The notes beneath the pieces were generated by a model, which was not told the DNA's origin, did no database searches, and saw nothing but the letters and a program-made list of their open reading frames with translations. Shown here one piece after another: positions 2,479-39,683 of a DNA stretch of 45,457 bases. The stretch is from a virus (taxonomy: Duplodnaviria; Heunggongvirae; Uroviricota; Caudoviricetes). Position numbers and translations under genes: made by a program. Numbering within the stretch: position 1 is the first letter of the stretch; every line of letters begins with the position of its first letter. The stretch is from the IMG/VR virus record IMGVR_UViG_3300032322_002674, positions 1 through 45,457 of that record. One strand, written 5' to 3'.

Positions 2479-4242
2479 TTAATCAACTGTGGTTGTTAAA
2501 TTTTTATTGAAATTAATTGGGTATTGTCCAGTTCTTAAAAAAGTAATTTCTTTTTCAAAATTCAAATAATCTTCTTCTTTTAATATTATTGATTTTAAAA
2601 AGTCTGGACTAAAAGTTAATTCTAAAAATTCTTTAATATTGCAAGACTTTCTTGATGTTGTTATATAAGGGTCTTGGATTTGTAATACAGTTCCTTTTGA
2701 TTCTTCAAAAGTTTTTATTTTTAAGTAAGAAAGGTTGGTAGTACCTTGTTTTTTAGAATATGCAATATAATCATTATAGTTTTCATTTAAGAATTCTTTA
2801 GGATAACCAATTCGATTACCAACTAATAACATATTAACTATTTTAACAGAATCATTATCAACAGTTTCTTTATATTTATCAAGATTTTTTAATAAATCTT
2901 CTTTAATATTTAATTTTACTACATCTTCACCTAAAAATTTACCATCTATTTTTGATTCAGTTTTTTTAGTTTTATATTTATCACATTTAGTACAATTAAA
3001 ACCTTCTTCAAATGGTTTTAATTTACACTCGTTACACTTAAAACTACTTTTAAACTGTTCTAATGAATTAGGTTTATCACCAAATAAATGTTCATATTTA
3101 AACTTATCATCATGAAAATAAGTGTTATTACCCAATAAATTTATTATATCCTTAAATAAACCTATTGTATTAAAAACTTCACTTATTTGAATTACTTCTT
3201 CTTTGGTATGTGGTTTATGATAACCACAACTTGCATTTAACATTAAAACATTAACACCTTCCCTTTTTAGAGCAACAACATCAGTTTTACTACCAACAGT
3301 TGTTTTATATCCCCACTTTTGAAAAGTAGGTGTTAAAAGTAATTCTTGTTCATCATTAAATAATTCAGTATAATCACCATAACGAACAATATCTTCATTA
3401 CCTTTTCTGTCTGCTTGTAATATATAACCTACATTTGAAAAGAAGTCTTTTGTACAAGTATATGAACCTATTTGTCCAATTTCTTCGTTATGGAAAAGAG
3501 CAATTTTAACTTGTGGTAATTCCAATAATAATTGAAGTGCCACAAATATACCAACTTTATCATCACCACCAGTTCCATATTGTTCTATTTTAGAACCATC
3601 AATTGCAAATAATGTATCACCAATGTGATATACTTTATATTTTTCAATTATTTTATGAACAGTATCTTTATGTGCAACAATACAAGGATAAACTTTTGAT
3701 TTACCTTTTGTTATAAAGAAATTTTTATTACCATATTCATCTTTTTCTATGTAATAGGTTATTCCTTTTAACCCCCTTATGAAATCAGTAATATATTTAT
3801 CCATCATACCTTCTTCACCAGAATGATAGGATTGAATAGAAACAATTTTTTTCAAACGTTCTAATTGATTTCTATTTACTTTAACTTCTTTTGATTTTTT
3901 AACTGAACTAACCATTTTTTTATATTTATTTGAGAATTTTTCCATATCTTTATCAATAAAAGAAAATTCATAAGGATTAACTAAATTTTTCAATAATTTA
4001 TTAATCTTTAATGAACATCTTGATTTTGATTTCCATGAATCAGTATCATTTTTAATATTTTTTAAATGTATTAATGAAACTTCATCAGGATTTATACCAA
4101 AATCCAAATAATTACCGTGATTTTTTATAAAATCATAATTATGGGGATTATCTAATATGTCAATAATTTTTTTAGATATATTACAACCTTGTAAGGAAAG
4201 GGAGTAAATTACATTAAAAAAATCTTTTGTTTTTAAAATCAT
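2479..4242 (-). CDS. M20/M28-clan zinc peptidase with flanking accessory domains and a CxxC..CxxC zinc ribbon
   Basis: Metal-ligand motifs AHKDTVH, GGDDKVG, EEIG, QADR, YHKPHT; CNEC...CTKC after the catalytic domain. Confidence 0.8.
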   Translation of the reverse strand: MILKTKDFFNVIYSLSLQGCNISKKIIDILDNPHNYDFIKNHGNYLDFGINPDEVSLIHLKNIKNDTDSWKSKSRCSLKINKLLKNLVNPYEFSFIDKDMEKFSNKYKKMVSSVKKSKEVKVNRNQLERLKKIVSIQSYHSGEEGMMDKYITDFIRGLKGITYYIEKDEYGNKNFFITKGKSKVYPCIVAHKDTVHKIIEKYKVYHIGDTLFAIDGSKIEQYGTGGDDKVGIFVALQLLLELPQVKIALFHNEEIGQIGSYTCTKDFFSNVGYILQADRKGNEDIVRYGDYTELFNDEQELLLTPTFQKWGYKTTVGSKTDVVALKREGVNVLMLNASCGYHKPHTKEEVIQISEVFNTIGLFKDIINLLGNNTYFHDDKFKYEHLFGDKPNSLEQFKSSFKCNECKLKPFEEGFNCTKCDKYKTKKTESKIDGKFLGEDVVKLNIKEDLLKNLDKYKETVDNDSVKIVNMLLVGNRIGYPKEFLNENYNDYIAYSKKQGTTNLSYLKIKTFEESKGTVLQIQDPYITTSRKSCNIKEFLELTFSPDFLKSIILKEEDYLNFEKEITFLRTGQYPINFNKNLTTTVD

Positions 4243-17252: not shown

Positions 17253-18710
17253 ATGGGATTTTACAGAACATATTTTACAAAGAATAATACAATACTTAGA
17301 AATCGTTTGGTTAATACTGCAAAAAACCAAGTAACAGAATTATATTACGGTAAAGATGTTCCTATATTTTCAGGTAATACAAGTGGTTTTAGTGGAACAA
17401 CAGATTTTTCCAGATTCTTATTTCAGTTTGATGTAACTGAATTAAGGGAAAAATATATGGATAAAACCATCATATCTTCCACCACAATCACTCATAAACT
17501 AAAAATGACTAATACATCATCTTTTGATAGAAGTCTCTTAGGAAAACCGTTTAAAGACTATTTTAGAGCAACATCATTTGATTTAATTCTTTTTAGAATA
17601 CCAGAATCTTGGGATGAAGGTGTTGGATATGATTATAATAATAGAAATTCAATTAATTTCCAAACAAATGAAACTTTTTTATTGGGTCCATCAAATTTCA
17701 TAGAAAGGGGAACAAACCAAAATTGGACATTAACTGGTGCAGTTGGTGGTAATCCAACAATATTAAGGGAACAACATTTTGATAATGGTGATGAAAATCT
17801 TGAAATGGATATTACAGATATTGTAAATGATTTAATTACTGGAACAACCGAAAATTATGGTTTTGGTATTGCATTTAGAAGTGATTATGAAAGATTAGTT
17901 ACTGATGAAAAATATTATGTTGGATTTTTCACAAAATATACACAAACACTTTTTGAACCACATATAGAAACAGTTTGGGATGATACTGTACTTGATGATA
18001 GAAACAAATTTTATCAAAACAAATTAAATCGTCTTTATCTTTATGCAAATATTGGTGGAAATTATGAAAATATTGAAATAGGTCAGGTTAAAATATATGA
18101 TAATGAAGGTAATGTTTTTAGAACATTTTCATCCCAACAAATAAAACAATCAACCAAAGGTGTTTATTATGTTGAATTTAGTGTTTTAGATACTGATTCA
18201 GAATGTCAGGTTAATTTTATTGATGTATGGAAAGATATATACTATAATGGTGTAAAACAACCTGATGTGCAAATGTATTTTACAATACAACCAAATACAA
18301 AATTCTTTTATATAAATAATAATGATAAATTACCAACCAATTATTCAATATCATTAAATGGTATTAAAAAAGATGAAACAATTTTAAGGGGTGATATTAG
18401 AAGAATTACAGTTTTTGCAAAAAAAGATTTTGAAAAAAATAATGAAGTTATTGATGGATTAAAATGGAGAATATATTTAAAACAAGGTACAGAAGAAATA
18501 CCTATAACAAATTGGTTAGATGTTAATAGGGGTTATACTTATAATTGGTTTGAATTAGATACCAGTTTTTTATTACCAACGATTTATTATTTGGATATTA
18601 AATTAGAAACAGGAAATTATGTTAAAACCTATAATGAAACTTTAAAATTCTTTGTTGTTGGTGTTGATGATAAATTTAATTTATTAACTGCAAGGGATTA
18701 TCTTGGTTAA
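17253..18710 (+). CDS. putative virion structural protein (beta-rich, Ig/jelly-roll-like)
   Basis: 485-aa ORF after the ATATTTAT motif; SRFLFQFD, ESWDEGVG, MDITDIVN, NYGFGIAF pattern typical of phage tail/baseplate-associated proteins. Confidence 0.55.
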   Translation: MGFYRTYFTKNNTILRNRLVNTAKNQVTELYYGKDVPIFSGNTSGFSGTTDFSRFLFQFDVTELREKYMDKTIISSTTITHKLKMTNTSSFDRSLLGKPFKDYFRATSFDLILFRIPESWDEGVGYDYNNRNSINFQTNETFLLGPSNFIERGTNQNWTLTGAVGGNPTILREQHFDNGDENLEMDITDIVNDLITGTTENYGFGIAFRSDYERLVTDEKYYVGFFTKYTQTLFEPHIETVWDDTVLDDRNKFYQNKLNRLYLYANIGGNYENIEIGQVKIYDNEGNVFRTFSSQQIKQSTKGVYYVEFSVLDTDSECQVNFIDVWKDIYYNGVKQPDVQMYFTIQPNTKFFYINNNDKLPTNYSISLNGIKKDETILRGDIRRITVFAKKDFEKNNEVIDGLKWRIYLKQGTEEIPITNWLDVNRGYTYNWFELDTSFLLPTIYYLDIKLETGNYVKTYNETLKFFVVGVDDKFNLLTARDYLG

Positions 18711-19519
18711 ATTGGTAATTTAACTTTTGAAAGAATTTTATTTGAAATATGAGTATATATTTCGGTAGTTTTTACATTTGAATGTCCTGCGATATTAGAT
18801 ATTATTTTTAAATCTGTTCCTGTTTCTAAAAGAGTTGTAAAACATGAATGACGCAGATTATGAATTGATGTTTTATAATCAATATATTTTTTATATATTT
18901 GTTGACAAGATTTTATAGAATATTTTCCTGAATTTTGTCCATTAAATAAATAAACTTTTGGTTTGTATATTTTATAATAATCACGAAGAAGATTTAAAAT
19001 ATTTTCTGATAATGGTACAATTCTATCTTTTTTTCCTTTTGAGTTTAATATATTTATAATCATTCTTTTTGAATCAATATCTTCGATTTTTAAGTTTACT
19101 ATTTCTGAAACTCTTAAACCTACTGAAAAACATAAAGATAATATTGTTTTATGTTTTAAGTTTTTTATATTATTAATTTTTTTAATAATTGTTTCTGAAT
19201 CAATTACTTTAGGTAATTTCTTTTCTTTTAAAGGTCGAATAAAAGAAATTTTATCATATTTTTTATTTAGGACTTCTTTATATAAAAATTTTAGGGAACT
19301 GATTATTTGATTTTGTTGTGAAGATGAAGAATAATTGTAATTTGTAACGTATTCTTGGAAATCAGAAGAATTTAATCTTGTAAATGATTTATTCTGTTTT
19401 TTAAAAAATTCACAAATATAATGTAAATAAATATTTTTAGTATTTTCAGAAAAACCCTTTAATTTCAATTTTTGGACACAAATTTCGTAATAGTTAGTTT
19501 CTTTCATATTGAAAATCAA
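18707..19519 (-). CDS. tyrosine recombinase (integron-like integrase) with N-terminal SAM-like domain
   Basis: Complete catalytic set: GLRVSE (R), KGKKDR (K), HNLRH (HxxR), AGH, TTEIYTH (Y). Likely ATG start at 19507. Lacks the IntI-specific insertion before the YLF patch. Confidence 0.93.
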   Translation of the reverse strand: MIFNMKETNYYEICVQKLKLKGFSENTKNIYLHYICEFFKKQNKSFTRLNSSDFQEYVTNYNYSSSSQQNQIISSLKFLYKEVLNKKYDKISFIRPLKEKKLPKVIDSETIIKKINNIKNLKHKTILSLCFSVGLRVSEIVNLKIEDIDSKRMIINILNSKGKKDRIVPLSENILNLLRDYYKIYKPKVYLFNGQNSGKYSIKSCQQIYKKYIDYKTSIHNLRHSCFTTLLETGTDLKIISNIAGHSNVKTTEIYTHISNKILSKVKLPI

Positions 19520-19559
19520 TTAGTTATGGGTAGTTAGATATATACAATAGTTAGTTGCA
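19511..19559 (+). other. attI-like primary recombination site
   Basis: Immediately 5' of the recombinase; three TAGTTA direct repeats (19521, 19531, 19548). The last gives GTTAGTTGCA (19550-19559), which is 9/10 complementary to TACAACTAAC (20338-20347) at the end of cassette 1. No hairpin. Confidence 0.68.
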
Positions 19560-19596
19560 ATTGCTACATTTGTTTTTAAATTAAACATTTGTGTAA

Positions 19597-20295
19597 ACAT
19601 TTTTATTCTTTTTTTTGCCTACACACTACAAAAATATAAAAATTTTTAGTAAAAAACAATTTTTTAATATATTTATATAAAAATAAAACAATTTTATATG
19701 AGAACAACAAAAATTACTTTAAATGAATTACGTAGCTTAATAAAACAGATTATTAAGGAAGAAAGAATGCTGAATGAATCCCTAAATAAAGATATTAGGG
19801 AATTTGGTAAGGATTTAGGAAAATATTTAACAAATTCTGGTTTTAAAGTTAAATTTATGAGTGGTAGAATGTCTGATGAAGATATGAAGCAAATAAAAAC
19901 GAACACAAATCTTGTGGGTTTAGTGTTAGACCAAAATGATTCACAACAATCCTTGTACATGCACTTCAATCCAAAAGACTTAAACAATATAGAAAAAATA
20001 GTTGATAAATTTCAATTATCACCATATAGAGGTAAAGTTATGTCTAAAGGTTGGACAAATAAACAAGTTGTTGGTGCATTAAATCCTGGAGATATTTTTA
20101 AGTGGGATAGTCAAAAGGATAGTGGTCTATATCAATTTTTTAGACTAAAAAAGGTTGACAGTAAAGTTTCCAATGTGTAACCCCAACACACAAAATTAAT
20201 AAAAAAATTTGGAAAAAAAACAACAGCCAGTTAGTGAAAGTTTAAGATTAAGAAATTATTTTAAATAATCCACCACACAAAAAGAATAAAAATGT
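19597..20295. repeat. 17-bp perfect inverted repeat flanking the cassette 1 gene
   Basis: ACATTTTTATTCTTTTT (19597-19613) / AAAAAGAATAAAAATGT (20279-20295). Confidence 0.7.
19698..20180 (+). CDS. cassette 1 protein, putative capsid-internal protein
   Basis: 160-aa ORF with its own ATATTTAT motif (19669-19676); leader MRTTKITLNELRSLIKQIIKEERMLNES has several (I/L)xE sites. Confidence 0.7.
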   Translation: MRTTKITLNELRSLIKQIIKEERMLNESLNKDIREFGKDLGKYLTNSGFKVKFMSGRMSDEDMKQIKTNTNLVGLVLDQNDSQQSLYMHFNPKDLNNIEKIVDKFQLSPYRGKVMSKGWTNKQVVGALNPGDIFKWDSQKDSGLYQFFRLKKVDSKVSNV

Positions 20296-20340
20296 CTTAG
20301 TGCTTTGATTGGAGTTCCGTAGTAAATAATCCGCAACTAC

Positions 20341-20395
20341 AACTAACAGCGTGTATAAAACATTAAAACGATTTTATACACGCAAAACGTTATGC
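20341..20395 (+). other. attC-like site 1 (55 bp)
   Basis: AACTAAC-A-GCGTGTATAAAA-loop-TTTTATACACGC-AAAAC-GTTATGC; 12-bp perfect stem. Confidence 0.85.
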
Positions 20396-20414
20396 GAAAA
20401 TTTGCTTACCACCC

Positions 20415-20741
20415 TCAATACTCCGAATGAACTTTAGGATTGATTTTTTCAATTTCTGCATACGCTTCTTCAAACTCTTTTGTAATGTGTGGCTTTATTG
20501 GCATCTGTTTCGCTATGTAAGCCATACACGCATCTATTCCTTTCCAACTATATTTTTTGTAAATAGGTAGCACCCATTCCAAATCTTGTGCATCTATCAA
20601 TACCATATCTGCACACGCATAATTGAAAAAATCATTGGCGTTCATAGCTATTCCAAATGAGCCTTTAATCAGCCCACGCAAATCATCGCATAACAGCACA
20701 TTGGCGTTATTGCTTTCCGTTTTCAAATTATCATTTTCCAT
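20415..20741 (-). CDS. cassette 2 hypothetical protein (antisense, starts inside attC2)
   Basis: 108-aa ORF; visibly more GC/CpG-rich than the backbone; ATG at 20741 lies in the hairpin loop. Confidence 0.75.
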   Translation of the reverse strand: MENDNLKTESNNANVLLCDDLRGLIKGSFGIAMNANDFFNYACADMVLIDAQDLEWVLPIYKKYSWKGIDACMAYIAKQMPIKPHITKEFEEAYAEIEKINPKVHSEY

Positions 20742-20808
20742 ATTATTAAATTTAGTGTTTCAATTAAGCATCTTTGTGGCAACAACGCCAGTCTGCAAAA
20801 CGTTATGT
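20688..20808 (+). other. attC-like site 2 (~121 bp)
   Basis: GCATAAC-A-GCACATTGGCGTTATTGC ... GCAACAACGCCAGTCTGC-AAAAC-GTTATGT; 15/18 stem. Confidence 0.85.
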
Positions 20809-20812
20809 TTAA

Positions 20813-21059
20813 TTAAAAATTATTACGTGGGAAGTACTCCAACCCAGTTTCACTTATCATTATATTGTCAACAAATTTTATATCAACTTCTTCGTATTGT
20901 AACTCACCATTATAATACCTTGATATATGTAGTTTTTCACCTGTTCCATATCTACATTCAACTGATGAAGTATCATCGTCCCATGTAGGACACCAATCAG
21001 GTATTTTAATTTTACTGGCTTTCTGCTTCGTTTGAAAGTTTTTTGTTTAAATTATCCAT
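20813..21059 (-). pseudogene. cassette 3 gene disrupted by an internal deletion/frameshift
   Basis: Leader MDNLNKKLSNEAESQ* (21059-21012) is out of frame with a ~69-codon body KASKIKIPDWCPTWDDD...EYFPRNNF* ending at 20813. Confidence 0.65.
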
Positions 21060-21122
21060 TGTTTTTCGTATTAAGTTTTGAGGTATTAATCAGCCACCTC
21101 GTTTAGCTGCCAAACGTTATGA
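21016..21122 (+). other. attC-like site 3 (left arm mostly deleted)
   Basis: Right arm AGCCACCTCGTTTAGCTGC-CAAAC-GTTATGA is intact; only TGGCT (21016-21020) of the left arm remains. Confidence 0.65.
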
Positions 21123-21446
21123 AACATTCTTCATCCTTCTATTGATGTTCGCTAAAATCATATCATACTCGATAAATATGACATCACCTTCTCGTTCATC
21201 ACTTTCTTTATATCTACTCGGTTTGTAAAAATCTCTAACCATTTGTTTAGCTTCGACATATTTACCTTCGTTTAATAATGGTTCAATTTGTTCTGATATG
21301 ATTTTAGCTAATTTCTCACCCATAACATCAATATATCTATAATATTCCAATGAACGTTTCATAACATCAGATATATTCAAGTTTTCTGATTCGGTTAATT
21401 TAAACTTGTTAAATTTGTCAATGTGTTGTCTCATTTCTTTACTCAT
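21117..21446 (-). CDS. cassette 4 hypothetical protein (antisense, starts inside attC4)
   Basis: 109-aa ORF; ATG in the attC4 loop; its TAA stop is the TTA of the GTTA core at 21116-21119. Confidence 0.75.
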   Translation of the reverse strand: MSKEMRQHIDKFNKFKLTESENLNISDVMKRSLEYYRYIDVMGEKLAKIISEQIEPLLNEGKYVEAKQMVRDFYKPSRYKESDEREGDVIFIEYDMILANINRRMKNVS

Positions 21447-21493
21447 AATTTTCTTTTATAAGAAAAAACTACATATATCTGTGTCCGTTATGT
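21359..21493 (+). other. attC-like site 4 (~135 bp)
   Basis: TCATAAC-AT-CAGATATAT..AGTTTT ... AAAACT..ATATATCTG-TGTCC-GTTATGT. Confidence 0.75.
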
Positions 21494-21636
21494 TCAATTT
21501 TTAAAAAATTATGAGTTTCTATTATTAAATTCTTCTGAACTAATTCTATCGTGGTAGGTATGGACATCACCACAATTACTACCGCATAATACTCTTTTTT
21601 AAGTGCTTCGTATTTCATAGGTATAAATTAATTTTT

Positions 21637-21896
21637 ACTAAATATAACAACAAATACTATACCATTTTCATCCTCAAAAGAAATTTTTCTGAAACTTTTG
21701 TATTAAACCGTAAGTTTAAATCTAATTCTCTTGTAAAATTTCTTTTAATCCATCCTTTGAATCAAATAAATAATCTGTGATGAAATATTTTACAATAACT
21801 TCCACCAACATTCTTCTGTAACTTTTGTTTTCTAATTCTAACATAATTTTAAGTTTTAATTTGTAAATTTTGTTTAACTAAATATAACAACAAATA
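21637..21896. repeat. 20-bp perfect direct repeat, 240 bp apart (possible minus-strand promoters)
   Basis: ACTAAATATAACAACAAATA at 21637-21656 and 21877-21896; each copy precedes a short minus-strand ORF (ATG 21618, 21844). Confidence 0.65.
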
Positions 21897-21918
21897 TAAG
21901 AAATAAATTTTGATTTGT

Positions 21919-22656
21919 CTAATGCAAAATTTCATAATCCCTTTCTTCTATATATCCTGTTTTAAAATATTGATAAACATCCTTATAATATTTTAATGAA
22001 TCTCTTATTTGTTTGGTATTCAGTTCAGTCATAGTTCTGATATATTCAAATATTAAATTTTTATTATATTTATTATTTCTTAAAAAATATTCTTGTATTT
22101 GATACCAGTTATCAAAAATATCAACAAGTGCCAAACCAACTTTTAATTCTTCTTTTGTCATATTTTTTTCATTTTCCTCAATTTTATCAGAAATCACAAC
22201 AGATAAATTTTTAAAAACCTCAATAATTAATTCATTATAATTTAAATTTAAAGTTTCAGTTTGTAAATCCTTTCTATCATTTTCCATTGTTTCAATATTG
22301 GATGGTGAAATATCTTCATAAGATGCATTAGTTTTAGTATTTTTCTTTGATTTATTAATTTGTACAATTAAATGTCTTTTAATGATTGTTCCAAAATAAG
22401 AATATGATTTTTTATTTTTTTCAGGTTTAAATTTATCCATTTTTGTTACTAAAAAAGATAAAACATCATTATGAGTATCATCATAATTTAAATCTGGACG
22501 ATATAGTTTATATCTTCTTATTATTGAATCGGTCATTTTTTTAAGAGGATTTTTTAAATGTTTATTAAAAATACTATTTCTTTCCTCTTGTGAATTACTT
22601 TCTAAGTACCTTACTACTGCATCCTCTTGTTCTTTACCCCAATATCCTTTTGCCAT
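21919..22656 (-). CDS. phage sigma-factor-like protein (sigma70 region 2; T4 gp55-like)
   Basis: DVLSFLVTKMDKFKPEKNKKSYSYFGTIIKR resembles the region 2.2-2.4 pattern (F-D-P-E-K..F-A-Y-F-T). Confidence 0.6.
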   Translation of the reverse strand: MAKGYWGKEQEDAVVRYLESNSQEERNSIFNKHLKNPLKKMTDSIIRRYKLYRPDLNYDDTHNDVLSFLVTKMDKFKPEKNKKSYSYFGTIIKRHLIVQINKSKKNTKTNASYEDISPSNIETMENDRKDLQTETLNLNYNELIIEVFKNLSVVISDKIEENEKNMTKEELKVGLALVDIFDNWYQIQEYFLRNNKYNKNLIFEYIRTMTELNTKQIRDSLKYYKDVYQYFKTGYIEERDYEILH

Positions 22657-28890: not shown

Positions 28891-29348
28891 GGTAATAATA
28901 TAAAGTTTAAATCTTTAGAAAATGTTTTTTTATTTACATTATTTTCAACATGAACAAATTTTAATCTATAAGTAAAATCTTCAAATTGATTTGTATAACC
29001 TAAACCTAAACTTTTTGTTGTTGGTAAACTTTTATTGTTTGACCAAACAATTTGTAGAAAAATATTTTTTTTAGATAAAAATCTAAAAAACTTTATAATA
29101 AGATAATTTCTAATCCAAAGTTTATAATCTAAACTAAACAGAAATAATACAAAATTCAAAAGTAATGAAATATCTTTTGGTTTTGATTGATTTATTTTAC
29201 GGTTTTCCCAAAATTCTTTTCTTTCTTTTTCATAAAGAGAATGGTTATCCCCAATTGGAATTGAATCAAAACCTTCTTTAATTAATAAACTTTGTGGTGG
29301 AATTGATTTAATATAACTGTTTTTCTTTGTTTCAAAAAAACTTTTCAT
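28887..29348 (-). CDS. hypothetical protein
   Basis: 153-aa ORF; TAAATTTA box 4 nt upstream. Confidence 0.6.
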   Translation of the reverse strand: MKSFFETKKNSYIKSIPPQSLLIKEGFDSIPIGDNHSLYEKERKEFWENRKINQSKPKDISLLLNFVLFLFSLDYKLWIRNYLIIKFFRFLSKKNIFLQIVWSNNKSLPTTKSLGLGYTNQFEDFTYRLKFVHVENNVNKKTFSKDLNFILLP

Positions 29349-29375
29349 TTTGTAAATTTAATAAAAAAAAACCAA

Positions 29376-30212
29376 TTAATCAAATTTCTTTTTAAAATCT
29401 TCTTTTAAATCAAATGGGTTTTCATACTCTTTTGTGTATAATCTCATATACATTAAAGATTTATTAAATATTGGTTTCATAAAGTTTTCGTGAATAATTT
29501 TTAAATTATCTTCTGTAAGTTGTCCTAAAAAAACAACAGGTACTTTAGAATTATCATCCATTAATTTTTGTTTTAATACTGATATGAATCTTTCAGTATC
29601 AGATTCACATTTGGTAATTAAAAAAGAAATTCTATCATGATTATCTGTTATATATATTTTTGTTCTAAAATAAGATATGAATTTTGGTACATCATTATTT
29701 ATAATAAAATTTTCATATATACCAAGAAATGTTAATTCTTTTCTTTTTTTTGGTTCTTTATCTGAATAAATACTAAAAATTTCTTCTGTTCTCCAGGGTG
29801 ATGCATGTAAAATAACCCAATCAGGATGTGTTGATTGTAAAATAACTTCTCTACCTAAATTATCCCTAACACCATCAATTAACCATTTAGGTAAAGAATT
29901 TTGATTTAGATTTTTTCTTGATGTTGTTAAAATAACTTCTTCATTTTTTTTTATAACAACATCACATTTTGATGTTCCTTTAGTAATTTTGTATATAGAT
30001 GGGAAAAAAACATTGGATGATAATTCAATATATTTTTTATAATAACCTATTGCAGTCCATAATCTACCAATTCTTTTTGATGCAAAAGATTTATTACCAC
30101 TTTTTGTTTTACCTAAATTTGCAATTTTAAGTTTCTTTTTCCAATCGGTAATAAAAATTTTAAAATCAAATTCATAATAACTTTTATATGGTCTGTATCT
30201 TGATTTTTCCAT
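29376..30212 (-). CDS. hypothetical basic protein
   Basis: 278-aa ORF, no recognised motif. Confidence 0.65.
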   Translation of the reverse strand: MEKSRYRPYKSYYEFDFKIFITDWKKKLKIANLGKTKSGNKSFASKRIGRLWTAIGYYKKYIELSSNVFFPSIYKITKGTSKCDVVIKKNEEVILTTSRKNLNQNSLPKWLIDGVRDNLGREVILQSTHPDWVILHASPWRTEEIFSIYSDKEPKKRKELTFLGIYENFIINNDVPKFISYFRTKIYITDNHDRISFLITKCESDTERFISVLKQKLMDDNSKVPVVFLGQLTEDNLKIIHENFMKPIFNKSLMYMRLYTKEYENPFDLKEDFKKKFD

Positions 30213-30633
30213 TATCTAAAAACATCATTTTTTTTTTAATTTCCCATACCATATATATTCAGATTTACGTCTTTTAACATAATCAGATAATAAAAATGTC
30301 TTACCATTTATTTTATCCCTAACATTCTCCATCTACGATAAATCAAATATAATATCTTATCTAAAAAATAATTTATAAAACAATTCTTAAAGTTTTAACT
30401 ATATTCTTTTTCCCCATAAAATCAATAACTTCCACATCTTCTTTATTTTTGTCAATATAGACCCTTATTGGTTCATTATTTTTATAAAAATTGTAAAAAT
30501 GTTCTACATTTAAATTTTCATTATGTGGTATAATTTTATCATTAACAATCATAACATTTTCACACTCTTCTAAAATTGCACCAACTTGGTGACTAATAAA
30601 TAAACAGTTTTAATGTTTTATTCTTATTAATTT

Positions 30634-31020
30634 TTATAAAGTCAAAGTAAAATTATCACAAAAATTTTTAACAAATTCTGCTTCCACATCTCCTGTAAAT
30701 TCATTATTAATCCATACATCAGTATTTTGAATTTCTTCAAATTTAATTTTGAATGTTCTAATTATTTCAATCACATTATTATAAATAAATTGAATAGGTA
30801 AATCTTTTACATTATTACTAAATATTCTAACAATAACAGCAGGTATTATTATAGCAATATCACCTTTATATGTTTCAATGTTATCTAAAAAATGTAATTG
30901 GAATAACTCACATGCTAATGCAGTATTTCTTTTGTTTTTTGTTTTATTTAAAAAACCTATAATTTCCCATTTTCTAATTAATTCATTTGAATTTTGTTCT
31001 ATTTTTAATAGTTCTACCAT
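30634..31020 (-). CDS. hypothetical protein resembling the N-terminal segment of T4-like major capsid proteins
   Basis: LIRKWEIIGFL..KRNTALACELFQ..IIPAVIVRIFS. Confidence 0.45.
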   Translation of the reverse strand: MVELLKIEQNSNELIRKWEIIGFLNKTKNKRNTALACELFQLHFLDNIETYKGDIAIIIPAVIVRIFSNNVKDLPIQFIYNNVIEIIRTFKIKFEEIQNTDVWINNEFTGDVEAEFVKNFCDNFTLTL

Positions 31021-31044
31021 AATTTTATTTTTTTTAATTTTTTT

Positions 31045-31638
31045 TTAATTCCACAACCCAAGTTTACGCATTGCACCCAAAACAACACAATATGCATCAC
31101 TCATATCATAACATTCTTTAATTGGAATTGAATGTTTATTTAGGGGCCAAATTATTTGTGGTTCTTTTTCTGATACCAAATTCCATATAATAATTTTCTT
31201 ATCACAATCTTTTGGATAACCACCAAATAAAACTGATTTACCCAATTTATTTTTTTGCATTAAAACAGGAAATGCATATTTTCTTGCATCATAAGAAGAT
31301 ATATACATTGGTTTAATATTTAATAAATCCCATATACATTTAGAAATCATACCATTGAAACGTAATAATTTTGCAATTGTAAAAATATTATTACTTCTAA
31401 GTAATGGTTCTTCTATAAATACCTTTTCTATATTATTCCAGATGTCAGGTAATTCTTCTAATTGAATTTGAATAAACTCCTTAAAAACATCACATTTTTC
31501 AAATAAAATATCATCTTCCTTATTTTTAGTTTTAATTTTTGGTGTAACATATCTTAATTCTATCAATTTACCTTCAATAGAAAAAATTGATACACCAATT
31601 GTTTTTGATGATACATCTAATCCTAATACGTATTTCAT
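31045..31638 (-). CDS. RuvC-like Holliday junction resolvase
   Basis: VLGLDVSSKTIG, VFIEEP, DMSDAY acidic catalytic residues of the RNase H/RuvC fold. Confidence 0.85.
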   Translation of the reverse strand: MKYVLGLDVSSKTIGVSIFSIEGKLIELRYVTPKIKTKNKEDDILFEKCDVFKEFIQIQLEELPDIWNNIEKVFIEEPLLRSNNIFTIAKLLRFNGMISKCIWDLLNIKPMYISSYDARKYAFPVLMQKNKLGKSVLFGGYPKDCDKKIIIWNLVSEKEPQIIWPLNKHSIPIKECYDMSDAYCVVLGAMRKLGLWN

Positions 31639-31639
31639 A

Positions 31640-32212
31640 TTATCTAACTATATTACAATCTTTTGGGTTTATGATAACTCTAACAAATTCAGAATTTGAA
31701 AAATCTATCTCATATATTGATTCGCAAGAAATTACCCATCTATATAAATACTCTTTATTATCATAAACATCAATTACATAATCAAAATCTTTTAAATCTT
31801 TATATTCAATTAATTTTGGGGTACATTCTTTTTTAAAGTCAACTTTTAATACTTTCCATTTTAAATGAGTACCATTGATATAATGTGGTTCATTACATTC
31901 TAAAATTTCAGTTGGTTGAATTTCAATAAAAGTACATTTTTTTTCTAAAGAATTATCATATTCACTTTTTTTCCATATTCTTTCAGTATTCCGCATAGGT
32001 TGTTCACCTACTGATTCTTCATCCTGAATTGTTACAGTACCATCTGTAACAGTAAATATTGTCCTACCTTCTTGTGGTATTAGTGTACTATTTGTAATAC
32101 TTGTATTATATACAACTTCATTTTCTTCTAATGAATTTTCTTCTAAAGTTCTTCTTAGACTATTAATTTGTTCTAATTCTTCATCACTTATTCTATTTTC
32201 TCTAATTGGCAT
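31640..32212 (-). CDS. hypothetical protein
   Basis: 190-aa operonic ORF. Confidence 0.65.
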   Translation of the reverse strand: MPIRENRISDEELEQINSLRRTLEENSLEENEVVYNTSITNSTLIPQEGRTIFTVTDGTVTIQDEESVGEQPMRNTERIWKKSEYDNSLEKKCTFIEIQPTEILECNEPHYINGTHLKWKVLKVDFKKECTPKLIEYKDLKDFDYVIDVYDNKEYLYRWVISCESIYEIDFSNSEFVRVIINPKDCNIVR

Positions 32213-38762: not shown

Positions 38763-39683
38763 TTATTTTATAATAGGTGAATTTAAAGGATGCAAAAATC
38801 TATCAAATTCAAAAATAGGTTGTTCAGATATTTCAGAATAAAAAGTTTCATTTAGATTTTTTCCAAACATCTCATAATTCAATAAGTTAATTTTTTTGTA
38901 CAATTTCTTTTCGTAATTGTTTATTTTTGATTTAATCATTCCTGACCAATAAGAAATAAAGTGTTCTGTATTTCTTGTTCTATCACCTTTTAATTCCTTA
39001 AATTTATTTATATATTCATCAATATTGTTAACATTTTTTAAATGTTTCTTAAAATCAAAATTTTTATATTGATTTAGATATTTAAATTCTTCTGAATTAA
39101 AAAATATATCCCAACTTTGTTTTGTGTTATTTGGATTACTATTTTTTATATGATGTAGTATAGAATTTATTCTAGCAGATTCCTCTGAATTTAAAAAATA
39201 GTAAAGTGTGTTAATGAAATAATTCCATATATCATCTTCATTATAAAGTTTTTGATATATTTTTGTATTTTCAATGTCTTTATTAATTCTATTGTTATTA
39301 AATGTTTTTATTAACTGATAAAGATGTAATAATTCATGTGATAAAATATATTCTATATTTTCTTCATTATTAATATTTAATGTAATTCCTATCTTTGCAT
39401 CATATACATCAAAATCACCGTAAAAATCAAATCTATTGGAACACCAACCATGATTTATGGTATAATCATTTTTGATTATAATCAATTCTATTAATAGTCC
39501 ATTTATATTATATTCTTTTAATTTAATATTTTCTTTTAAATTAATTTTTATTTCATTTTGTGATGTTAAATTCCATTTTTTATTGTTATATTTATTTAAG
39601 ATAATATTATAAAGATATTCTAAAGTCGGTTTCATTTCTTTTAAATACCCACTTTCAAGTAATAATTCCAATAAATACCTCAT
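38763..39683 (-). CDS. HEXXH zincin-like protein
   Basis: ILSHELLHLYQ with downstream SEESAR; likely start 39683 (MRYLLELLLES), since the longer ORF overlaps the upstream gene. Confidence 0.6.
   Translation of the reverse strand: MRYLLELLLESGYLKEMKPTLEYLYNIILNKYNNKKWNLTSQNEIKINLKENIKLKEYNINGLLIELIIIKNDYTINHGWCSNRFDFYGDFDVYDAKIGITLNINNEENIEYILSHELLHLYQLIKTFNNNRINKDIENTKIYQKLYNEDDIWNYFINTLYYFLNSEESARINSILHHIKNSNPNNTKQSWDIFFNSEEFKYLNQYKNFDFKKHLKNVNNIDEYINKFKELKGDRTRNTEHFISYWSGMIKSKINNYEKKLYKKINLLNYEMFGKNLNETFYSEISEQPIFEFDRFLHPLNSPIIK

Follow-up and report, generated by a model that had tools for sequence, protein, structure and literature searches.

Integron-like cassette arrays headed by a Xer-type recombinase in large Bacteroidota phages: a candidate gene-capture platform

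Introduction

In integrons, such as the sedentary chromosomal one of Vibrio cholerae, transcription of the recombinase gene leads away from an adjoining attI insertion site, and single-gene cassettes follow, each with an imperfect palindrome (attC) at its distal end that has an AAC/GTT core, crossover taking place in GTT(A). The R'' box of a site is complementary to the R' box of its own cassette, the structure of the sites is kept while their sequence and length vary, variation is greatest at the position of the first cassette, and one strand folds preferentially. A domain specific to the integron integrase, IntI, is considered necessary for recombination at folded attC sites. All of these features of layout have a counterpart, with site lengths of 44–155 nt, in a locus that we analyzed in a 45,457-nt stretch of DNA (positions 1 to 45,457 of IMG/VR record IMGVR_UViG_3300032322_002674, Caudoviricetes; hereafter the window) belonging to a phage genome of 173 kb. 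The window holds an array of hairpin-bounded gene cassettes headed by a tyrosine recombinase of the Xer type, and the sequences of this locus and of its relatives make it very likely that the two form a phage-encoded gene-capture platform, integron-like in operation.

Promoter-stem-loop (PeSL) cassettes of T4-type phages have been proposed to shuffle modularly by homologous recombination. As generally described, they resemble the present locus in having repeated stem-loops on either side of small accessory genes, in hyperplastic regions of large phages; a recombinase of their own, an attI or a crossover fixed to four bases is not known to have been described for them. Xer enzymes are able to use a folded single-stranded phage site, that of the CTX phage. 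Dif-like sites bound mobile gene modules, such as the pdif modules of Acinetobacter (PMC7399989). In phages, canonical integron pieces and CALINs (groups of two or more attC-type sites that have no integrase close by) were reported from 21 phages by Qi et al. 2023 (PMC9892861); of the sites tested there, P12002L_attC1 alone gave no verified recombination with IntI1. That study read the sites as canonical bacterial-integron attC and named no cognate enzyme, whereas the sites described here are accompanied by a recombinase and an attI of their own and form arrays of up to 12 or more. Our literature search, which was incomplete, found no paper that treats the recombinase, attI, arrays or their distribution as one system.

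Results and discussion

Organization of the window array

The letters of the window were inspected directly and then rescanned by script (Table 1). The non-hairpin GTTA that a preliminary description of this DNA, made from the letters alone, had placed beside a tyrosine recombinase gene is present at 19550–19553. The recombinase open reading frame (ORF) spans 18707–19519 on the minus strand, its probable start codon is the ATG at 19510, and the GTTA lies 40 nt upstream of this ATG and forms no hairpin on folding. Hairpin sites of the form TAAC-N1-2-stem/stem-N5-GTTA are intact at three places, with the G of the core at 20389, 20802 and 21487. The preliminary description had listed four such sites; the one at 21116 turned out to be half a site, which keeps a distal arm followed by spacer CAAAC and GTTAT but has lost the proximal arm and TAAC (the arm complementary to GCAGCTAAACGAGGTGGCTG is absent after ..GCCA), leaving a stem of 4–5 bp only.

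Site 1 (TAAC at 20344) has a perfect 12-bp stem (20349–20360 with 20372–20383) and a predicted DNA fold of −11.5 kcal/mol (z = −3.9), and its loop recurs over many different compensating stems at ~55 sites elsewhere. Site 2 (TAAC at 20691) has an imperfect stem (20696–20713 with 20779–20796) that folds better on the minus strand (−13.7 kcal/mol) than on the plus strand (−9.7). In site 4 (TAAC at 21362), positions 21368–21376 pair with 21473–21481, and near relatives of this site with an identical leader occur in three other loci (L026, L049 and L067). Site 3 did not fold better than shuffled sequences. The ends of units 1, 2 and 4 are self-complementary at 9/10, 9/9 and 10/10 positions, exactly as had been claimed, and in cassette 1 the R' box GTTAGTTGCAAT is complementary to the R'' box ACTACAACTAAC at 10/12 positions. 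The ORF of cassette 1 gave no match in Pfam or NCBIfam, and the stop codon TAA of the cassette 4 ORF is the TTA of a GTTA core (21117–21119). The guanine-plus-cytosine (GC) content of the array is 0.295, with a peak of 0.39, vs 0.24 genome-wide; in cassette 2 it is 0.36–0.39 vs ~0.20 in the flanking DNA. Cassette 6 forms the distal end of the array and abuts a 245-aa gene at 21919–22656; over 58 nt, what is left of its site matches an unbroken 75-nt-class site in a second array of the same genome at 88% identity.

Table 1. Coordinates of the recombinase gene, the insertion site, the cassettes and the hairpin sites. Positions are those of the window, except for the second array.
Feature	Position	Strand	Description
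Tyrosine recombinase gene	18707..19510	-	266 aa plus stop; Pfam, NCBIfam and PDB alignments; Xer-like
attI-like insertion site	19537..19553		Conserved GATATATACAATA then GTTA (19550-19553); no hairpin; predicted crossover within GTTA
Cassette 1 (839 bp)	19551..20389	+	Bounded by attI GTTA and attC1 G; 160-aa ORF 19698-20180, in the rare orientation
attC-like site 1	20336..20400	-	44-45-nt class; R'' 20336-20347, loop CATTAAAACGA, spacer AAAAC, R' 20389-20400
Cassette 2 (413 bp)	20390..20802	-	108-aa ORF 20415-20741 (minus); start codon within attC2 loop
attC-like site 2 (111-nt span)	20683..20813	-	R'' TCATCGCATAAC, long imperfect stem, spacer AAAAC, R' GTTATGTTTAAT; tolerant detector
Cassette 3 (314 bp)	20803..21116	-	Truncated attC; ORF split into short leader and ATG-less body in another frame
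Cassette 4 (371 bp)	21117..21487	-	109-aa ORF 21117-21446 (minus); start codon and leader MSKEMRQHIDKFNKFKLTESENLNISDV within attC4
attC-like site 4 (125-nt span)	21354..21498	-	R'' ACGTTTCATAAC, 9-bp stem, spacer TGTCC, R' GTTATGTTCAAT
Decayed cassette 5	21488..21713	-	R'' ACTAAATATAAC at 21637-21648, weak stem, core GTAA (21710-21713) not GTTA; found by R'' motif scan
Decayed cassette 6	21714..21915	-	Truncated 75-nt-class site: R'' ACTAAATATAAC (21877-21888) and proximal arm left
Second array	165173-168099 (L163:2674-5600), outside the window	Opposite orientation	Five hairpin sites at 165173-167683

Hairpin sites in related loci

A scan of IMG/VR with the recombinase yielded 80 loci with relatives of 52–67% identity, many of them on viral contigs of 100–360 kb, which were searched with the strict detector (up to 10 sites per locus) and with the tolerant one (332 sites). 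Hairpin sites were present in ~60 of the 80 relatives. The tolerant detector found 332 sites in the orientation seen in the window vs 11 on the opposite strand, and 329 of the 332 lay on the 5' side of the recombinase gene; these two counts exclude a chance origin of the window sites, and the second ties the hairpins to this recombinase clade. The sites thus stand in direct orientation, not in the inverted one of a shufflon or invertible segment. The linkage of recombinase and array is kept across ~60 otherwise unrelated genomic contexts. Genes flanking the recombinase-array unit showed no conservation among the loci on either side, and comparison of the same locus was therefore limited to a few close sets. 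In the bacterial genome collections, arrays appeared only on viral-looking contigs of metagenome-assembled genomes (L089); chromosomal homologs of the recombinase in Bacteroidota (~40% identity) had no arrays, and the 44-nt-class pattern was not found in five Flavobacteriia genomes, a small sample searched for one site class. Within the 173-kb phage genome, the detected sites were mainly in the window array and in the second array at 165–168 kb.

Both boxes of the site are 12 nt long in a logo of 238 sites, R'' reading A-C-T-nnnn-M-TAAC and R' reading (C)GTTA-K-nnnn-A-A-T. The site spans range from 44 to 155 nt and group at 44, ~75, ~84 and ~120 nt. What is conserved is structure, not sequence, as the preliminary description had held from four sites: 295 sites contain 155 distinct stem arms, most stem positions show Watson-Crick pairing in 93–99% of cases, all four pair types occur at the majority of positions, and in the 44-nt class the fixed loop CATTAAAACGA sits on many different stems. 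The logo and the covariation together give R''-L''...L'-R' imperfect palindromes with an AAC/GTT core, as in integrons.

The mismatches in the stems are one-sided: 213 are A.C when read on the plus strand, which makes them G.T on the other, vs 30 of the reverse kind, and position −7 of the R box is C:A in 72% of the sites; the minus strand would therefore be the strand selected to fold. We consider that the substrate of recombination is probably the folded minus strand, like the bottom strand of integrons. Strand choice seems to be marked here by G.T wobbles and the 2/5-nt spacer and not, as in integrons, by bulged bases: the ungapped stems pair at 93–99% of positions with position-specific G.T wobbles, bulges being outside the reach of the detector, and P12002L_attC1 has one bulged A. 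Because the hairpins have no T-tails (0 terminator-like sites in a terminator scan), they are not intrinsic terminators, and this result, together with their tie to the recombinase clade, speaks against the terminator-only role that had been raised as a counter-explanation. Sigma-70-like promoters, the one type modelled, were not enriched (18 vs 17.3 expected).

Footprints of cassette insertion and movement

The five variable bases before TAAC were scored against possible R' partners in 167 consecutive site pairs. Against the R' that starts their own cassette, these R'' bases matched at a mean of 3.90 of 5 positions and perfectly in 54% of the pairs; against the R' now adjacent to them, the mean was 1.92 of 5 with 1.2% perfect, and shuffled pairs gave 1.74. 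Cassette ends are thus complementary, R'' to own R', the pattern known from integrons, whose cassettes have passed through a circular form with one complete site.

Of 81 loci, 72 have the consensus TATATA..ATAGTTA 5' of the start codon of the recombinase. Nineteen pairs of loci are at least 95% identical through the GTTA of attI; over the next 60 nt, identity is 50% or less in nine of them and 90% or more in another nine. Where such near-identical backbones part, they do so at the very first base that follows GTTA. The attI adjoins the 5' end of the recombinase gene and, on these comparisons, serves as the main insertion point. Three loci (L031, L033 and L050) have the recombinase, an attI-like sequence and a full 6-kb flank in which no hairpin site was detected, and may be empty platforms or users of variant sites missed by the detector.

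Different cassettes stand behind nearly the same recombinase, and their order is not fixed, which answers a test that the preliminary description had set for its idea of shuffling. The 265 cassettes fall into 231 nucleotide clusters (median length 391 bp), and the closest relative of the window, with a recombinase 83% identical, carries six cassettes, all unrelated to those of the window. A 956-bp cassette (cassette A) is first after attI in L016 and L017 and seventh in L032, on backbones that are 97–99.9% identical, and four cassettes of L016 are missing from L017. One cassette is common, at 97.6% identity, to L057 and L080, two loci with recombinase genes that are 72% identical in nucleotides, and L013 and L039 have one in common at 83%. 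Movement is therefore visible in the sets L016/L017/L032 and L057/L080, in support of the capture and shuffling platform first proposed. Since each shared block extends between two successive GTTA cores, to within 4 nt, and takes in the distal hairpin, the cassette is the unit TTA ... gene ... hairpin ... G, as in integrons. Many sites of the same class are >90% identical over ~60 nt within one array.

The recombinase

The recombinase matched Phage_integrase (2e-31) and Phage_int_SAM_4 (4e-11) in Pfam. Among the NCBIfam Xer models it scored 165 bits with XerA_Arch (cut-off 220), 135 with XerD (cut-off 330) and 131 with XerC (cut-off 335), reaching none of these equivalog scores. Nor did it reach the score of a curated IntI model: integrase_gron (TIGR02249) gave 148 bits (cut-off 265) with a match broken at model positions 207 and 255, and PRK15417 gave 86 bits (cut-off 435). 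Its best match in the structure database, and its closest in structure and sequence, was the archaeal XerA of Pyrococcus (PDB 4a8e), aligned end to end with 135 bits. In the alignment with VchIntIA/IntI4 of V. cholerae (PDB 2a3v), the catalytic motifs R, HxxR, H and Y are intact, and residues 184–213 of the phage enzyme (29 aa) stand opposite IntI residues 183–260 (77 aa). Judged from this alignment, the IntI-specific insertion (the I2 helix region, ~48 residues) is absent from the 266-aa phage enzyme, which differs from VchIntIA in this and in its sub-cut-off IntI scores.

A Xer dimer resolvase would combine an equivalog score with a single dif duplex of 28–30 bp. The window enzyme is instead encoded by a phage, linked to an array and below all Xer cut-offs, and its sites are not dif-like duplexes of 28 bp but arrays of direct-orientation hairpins of 44–155 nt, to which a distinct attI is added. 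The whole genome holds just one copy of the recombinase. Its best 120 database matches are 64–83% identical and 263–284 aa long, nearly all of them 266–268 aa; XerD is the only source-given name shown among these 120, many of which are unnamed. The recombinase clade is abundant in metagenomes, and the system is widespread but hidden in current annotation.

A second array and a previously described phage site

The second array of the genome begins with a 114-nt copy (89% identical) of attI and the 5' end of the recombinase gene, which ends exactly at GTTA. There is no recombinase gene at this array, so the recombinase would act on it in trans. Like the CALINs reported from phages, it has no adjoining recombinase and, at 165173–167996, fits their definition, which the window array, adjoined by its recombinase, does not.

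P12002L_attC1, traced by its published primer sequence, was located at ~29995–30056 of NC_028924 (Polaribacter phage P12002L, L170) and shares both class and loop with site 1 of the window, being a 44-nt-class site with the loop CATTAAAACGA. It is surrounded by minus-strand methylase genes bounded by R'-type boxes, and the NC_028924 record carries no recombinase annotation. The CALIN of this phage, at ~29237–32070 and 38879–38944, contains a 44-nt-class site and a degenerate site with a GTTG core.

Proposed mechanism and alternative explanations

As we picture it, the Xer-type recombinase would recombine a non-hairpin attI (TATATA..ATA|GTTA) with attC-like hairpins. Such a hairpin site consists of an R box (ACTnnnnMTAAC paired with GTTAKnnnnAAT), asymmetric spacers of 1–2 vs 5 nt, a 9–19-bp stem free in sequence, and a loop of one of two kinds, short and conserved or long and coding. 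The sequence footprints show that the cassette, made up of one tightly packed gene and the hairpin at its distal end, leaves as a circle and re-enters through a crossover within the invariant GTTA, for the most part at attI. None of the three outcomes that the preliminary description had named as refuting its reading is borne out by the sequences compared. The integron-like reading of the preliminary description stands for the layout, the attI, the hairpins and the pairing of the ends; it does not for the enzyme, which is Xer-like without the IntI insertion, or for the ORFs, which point toward the recombinase. The system is therefore integron-like but not canonical, the IntI domain and the cassette orientation being the two defining features that it lacks. 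On balance we incline to regard it as a second kind of integron, of independent origin or in a pre-IntI state, with a plain Xer-type enzyme without I2 and native to large Bacteroidota phages, in which the sites would double as expression modules (start codon, leader and stop), one enzyme would serve several arrays in trans, and a cassette pool of counter-defence genes would be shared among phages.

Several observations weigh against a capture platform of this kind. The recombinase lacks the domain held necessary for recombination of folded attC. Three of the six window sites are truncated or decayed. A protein search of cultured phages found no close homolog of the recombinase, the best being from Cellulophaga phage Ingeline with 40% identity. 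The comparisons behind the divergence after attI, the movement of cassettes and their variable content rest on metagenome assemblies, in which repeated 44-nt sites could cause mis-joins, for example where the L016 contig ends in a second copy of cassette A. The wobble asymmetry could also come from RNA hairpins; an RNA-level cause is conceivable because the folding strand is the sense strand of the cassette genes.

The last point and the absence of the I2 region from a Xer-like enzyme are what one would expect if the same platform worked through double-stranded core sites, in which the distal arm, the 5-nt spacer and R' make up a Xer/dif-like inverted repeat and the hairpin is a by-product or serves the mRNA: the hairpins lie at the 5' ends of the ORFs on the sense strand, where a G.U wobble bias would be selectable as RNA, and the stem arm ATGATAAACAAC of the 44-nt class resembles the R' box at 9/12 positions. 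A duplex binding site, however, needs none of the 93–99% pairing kept by 155 freely varying arms, and the pairing of R'' with its own R' over non-conserved bases matters only if both ends pair in one folded strand; we hold this route to be possible but rather unlikely. Homologous recombination between regulatory stem-loops in the manner of PeSLs, beside a recombinase that has an unrelated task such as lysogeny or dimer resolution, could exploit one-class sites that are >90% identical over ~60 nt within an array, which is enough for exchange, and the hairpins do precede genes. It is nevertheless improbable, as attI is the commonest breakpoint and yet shares with the hairpin sites just GTTA and a few bases, the 44-, 84- and 120-nt classes all join at the same four bases, the pairing of R'' and R' of one cassette is not predicted, and recombinase and array remain linked in ~60 otherwise unrelated contexts.

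That the array is a fragment of a bacterial integron taken from the host, comparable with the pieces of integrons and the CALINs that 21 phages are reported to carry (PMC9892861), seems very improbable to us. Integron parts are known in phages and P12002L_attC1 belongs to the site family of the window, but no IntI is present, the chromosomal homologs in Bacteroidota are ~40% identical and without arrays, the 44-nt-class pattern is absent from the five Flavobacteriia genomes, and the recombinase clade is large, its longest contigs being viral ones of 100–350 kb. We give just as little credence to hairpins that serve expression only, as terminators, processing sites or translational operators, with no recombination: a hairpin stands at the 5' end of every ORF and the long class carries the start codon in its loop, but T-tails are lacking, with 0 terminator-like sites, and the GTTA breakpoints, the end complementarity and the cassette exchange would be left unexplained. 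The hairpins may have a regulatory role alongside recombination.

An integron-like capture platform would have consequences beyond this phage. A short Xer-like enzyme heads arrays that bear every sequence footprint of integron-type capture, and the origin of integrons from Xer recombinases and the real need for the IntI-specific domain become directly testable. If the reading is true, large phages would possess machinery devoted to taking up accessory genes and rearranging them.

Cassette anatomy and cargo

Integron cassettes are promoterless and are read away from intI from the Pc promoter on the attI side, whereas the longest ORF of the phage cassettes lies on the strand of the recombinase and reads toward it in 236 of 259 cases. 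Every cassette ORF ends without crossing the proximal boundary. In a further departure from integrons, the long sites hold the start codon and a leader, and the core provides the stop codon: the loop of the ~120-nt class carries an ATG and a leader ending in ..L(N/H/G)ISDV-x-x-S, encoded by the proximal arm and R'', and the core TTA is the TAA stop of the cassette gene in 36 of 220 cassettes of related loci (16%). Both intact minus-strand genes of the window start with a leader of the ~120-nt class. Leader families such as MKDLKHIKRFNESEENLNISDV and MSKEMRQHIDKFNKFKLTESENLNISDV are common to unrelated cassette proteins, in the window (21354–21446 and 20683–20741) and in many loci.

The cargo is made up for the most part of small proteins with no recognizable family, as a search with 150 cassette proteins gave few family matches. 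Those obtained included four DNA methyltransferases (orphan methylases), the Thoeris inhibitor Tad6 (4.6e-41), an ADP-ribosyltransferase of the ART/Arr type, an RNA ligase, a GNAT acetyltransferase, exonucleases, a phosphatase and an HNH endonuclease, suggesting that the cargo is a store of counter-defence and other accessory genes. The methylases and the Thoeris inhibitor point to counter-defence, mirroring the stores of defence genes that bacterial chromosomal integrons are reported to hold (bioRxiv 2024.07.02.601686).

Cassettes starting with GTTATAAAACAT(A/T)AAAA occur in L002, L003, L022, L024, L045, L050, L057 and L163 (~5130), and this start resembles one half of the 44-nt-class hairpin with its loop. 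In L022 and L024, a nearly empty unit of ~25 nt lies between attI and the first site.

Phage genome

The array also differs from those of integrons in that its host is a phage. Nine of the ten large window proteins had no PHROG match, a peptidase (2479–4242) being the only one with a match, and the phage type was therefore inferred from relatives: a T4-type portal is encoded on the relative with the 83% identical recombinase, and a sheath on one with a 76% identical recombinase. The phage lineage is very poorly covered by reference sets. An Rfam scan of 19400–22100 found no family. In a nucleotide search of cultured phages, the sole match was a 77-nt intergenic one to Flavobacterium phage vB_FspM_immuto: positions 20213–20289 of the window, non-coding and inside cassette 1, are 85.7% identical to the intergenic stretch between immuto26A_188 and _189.

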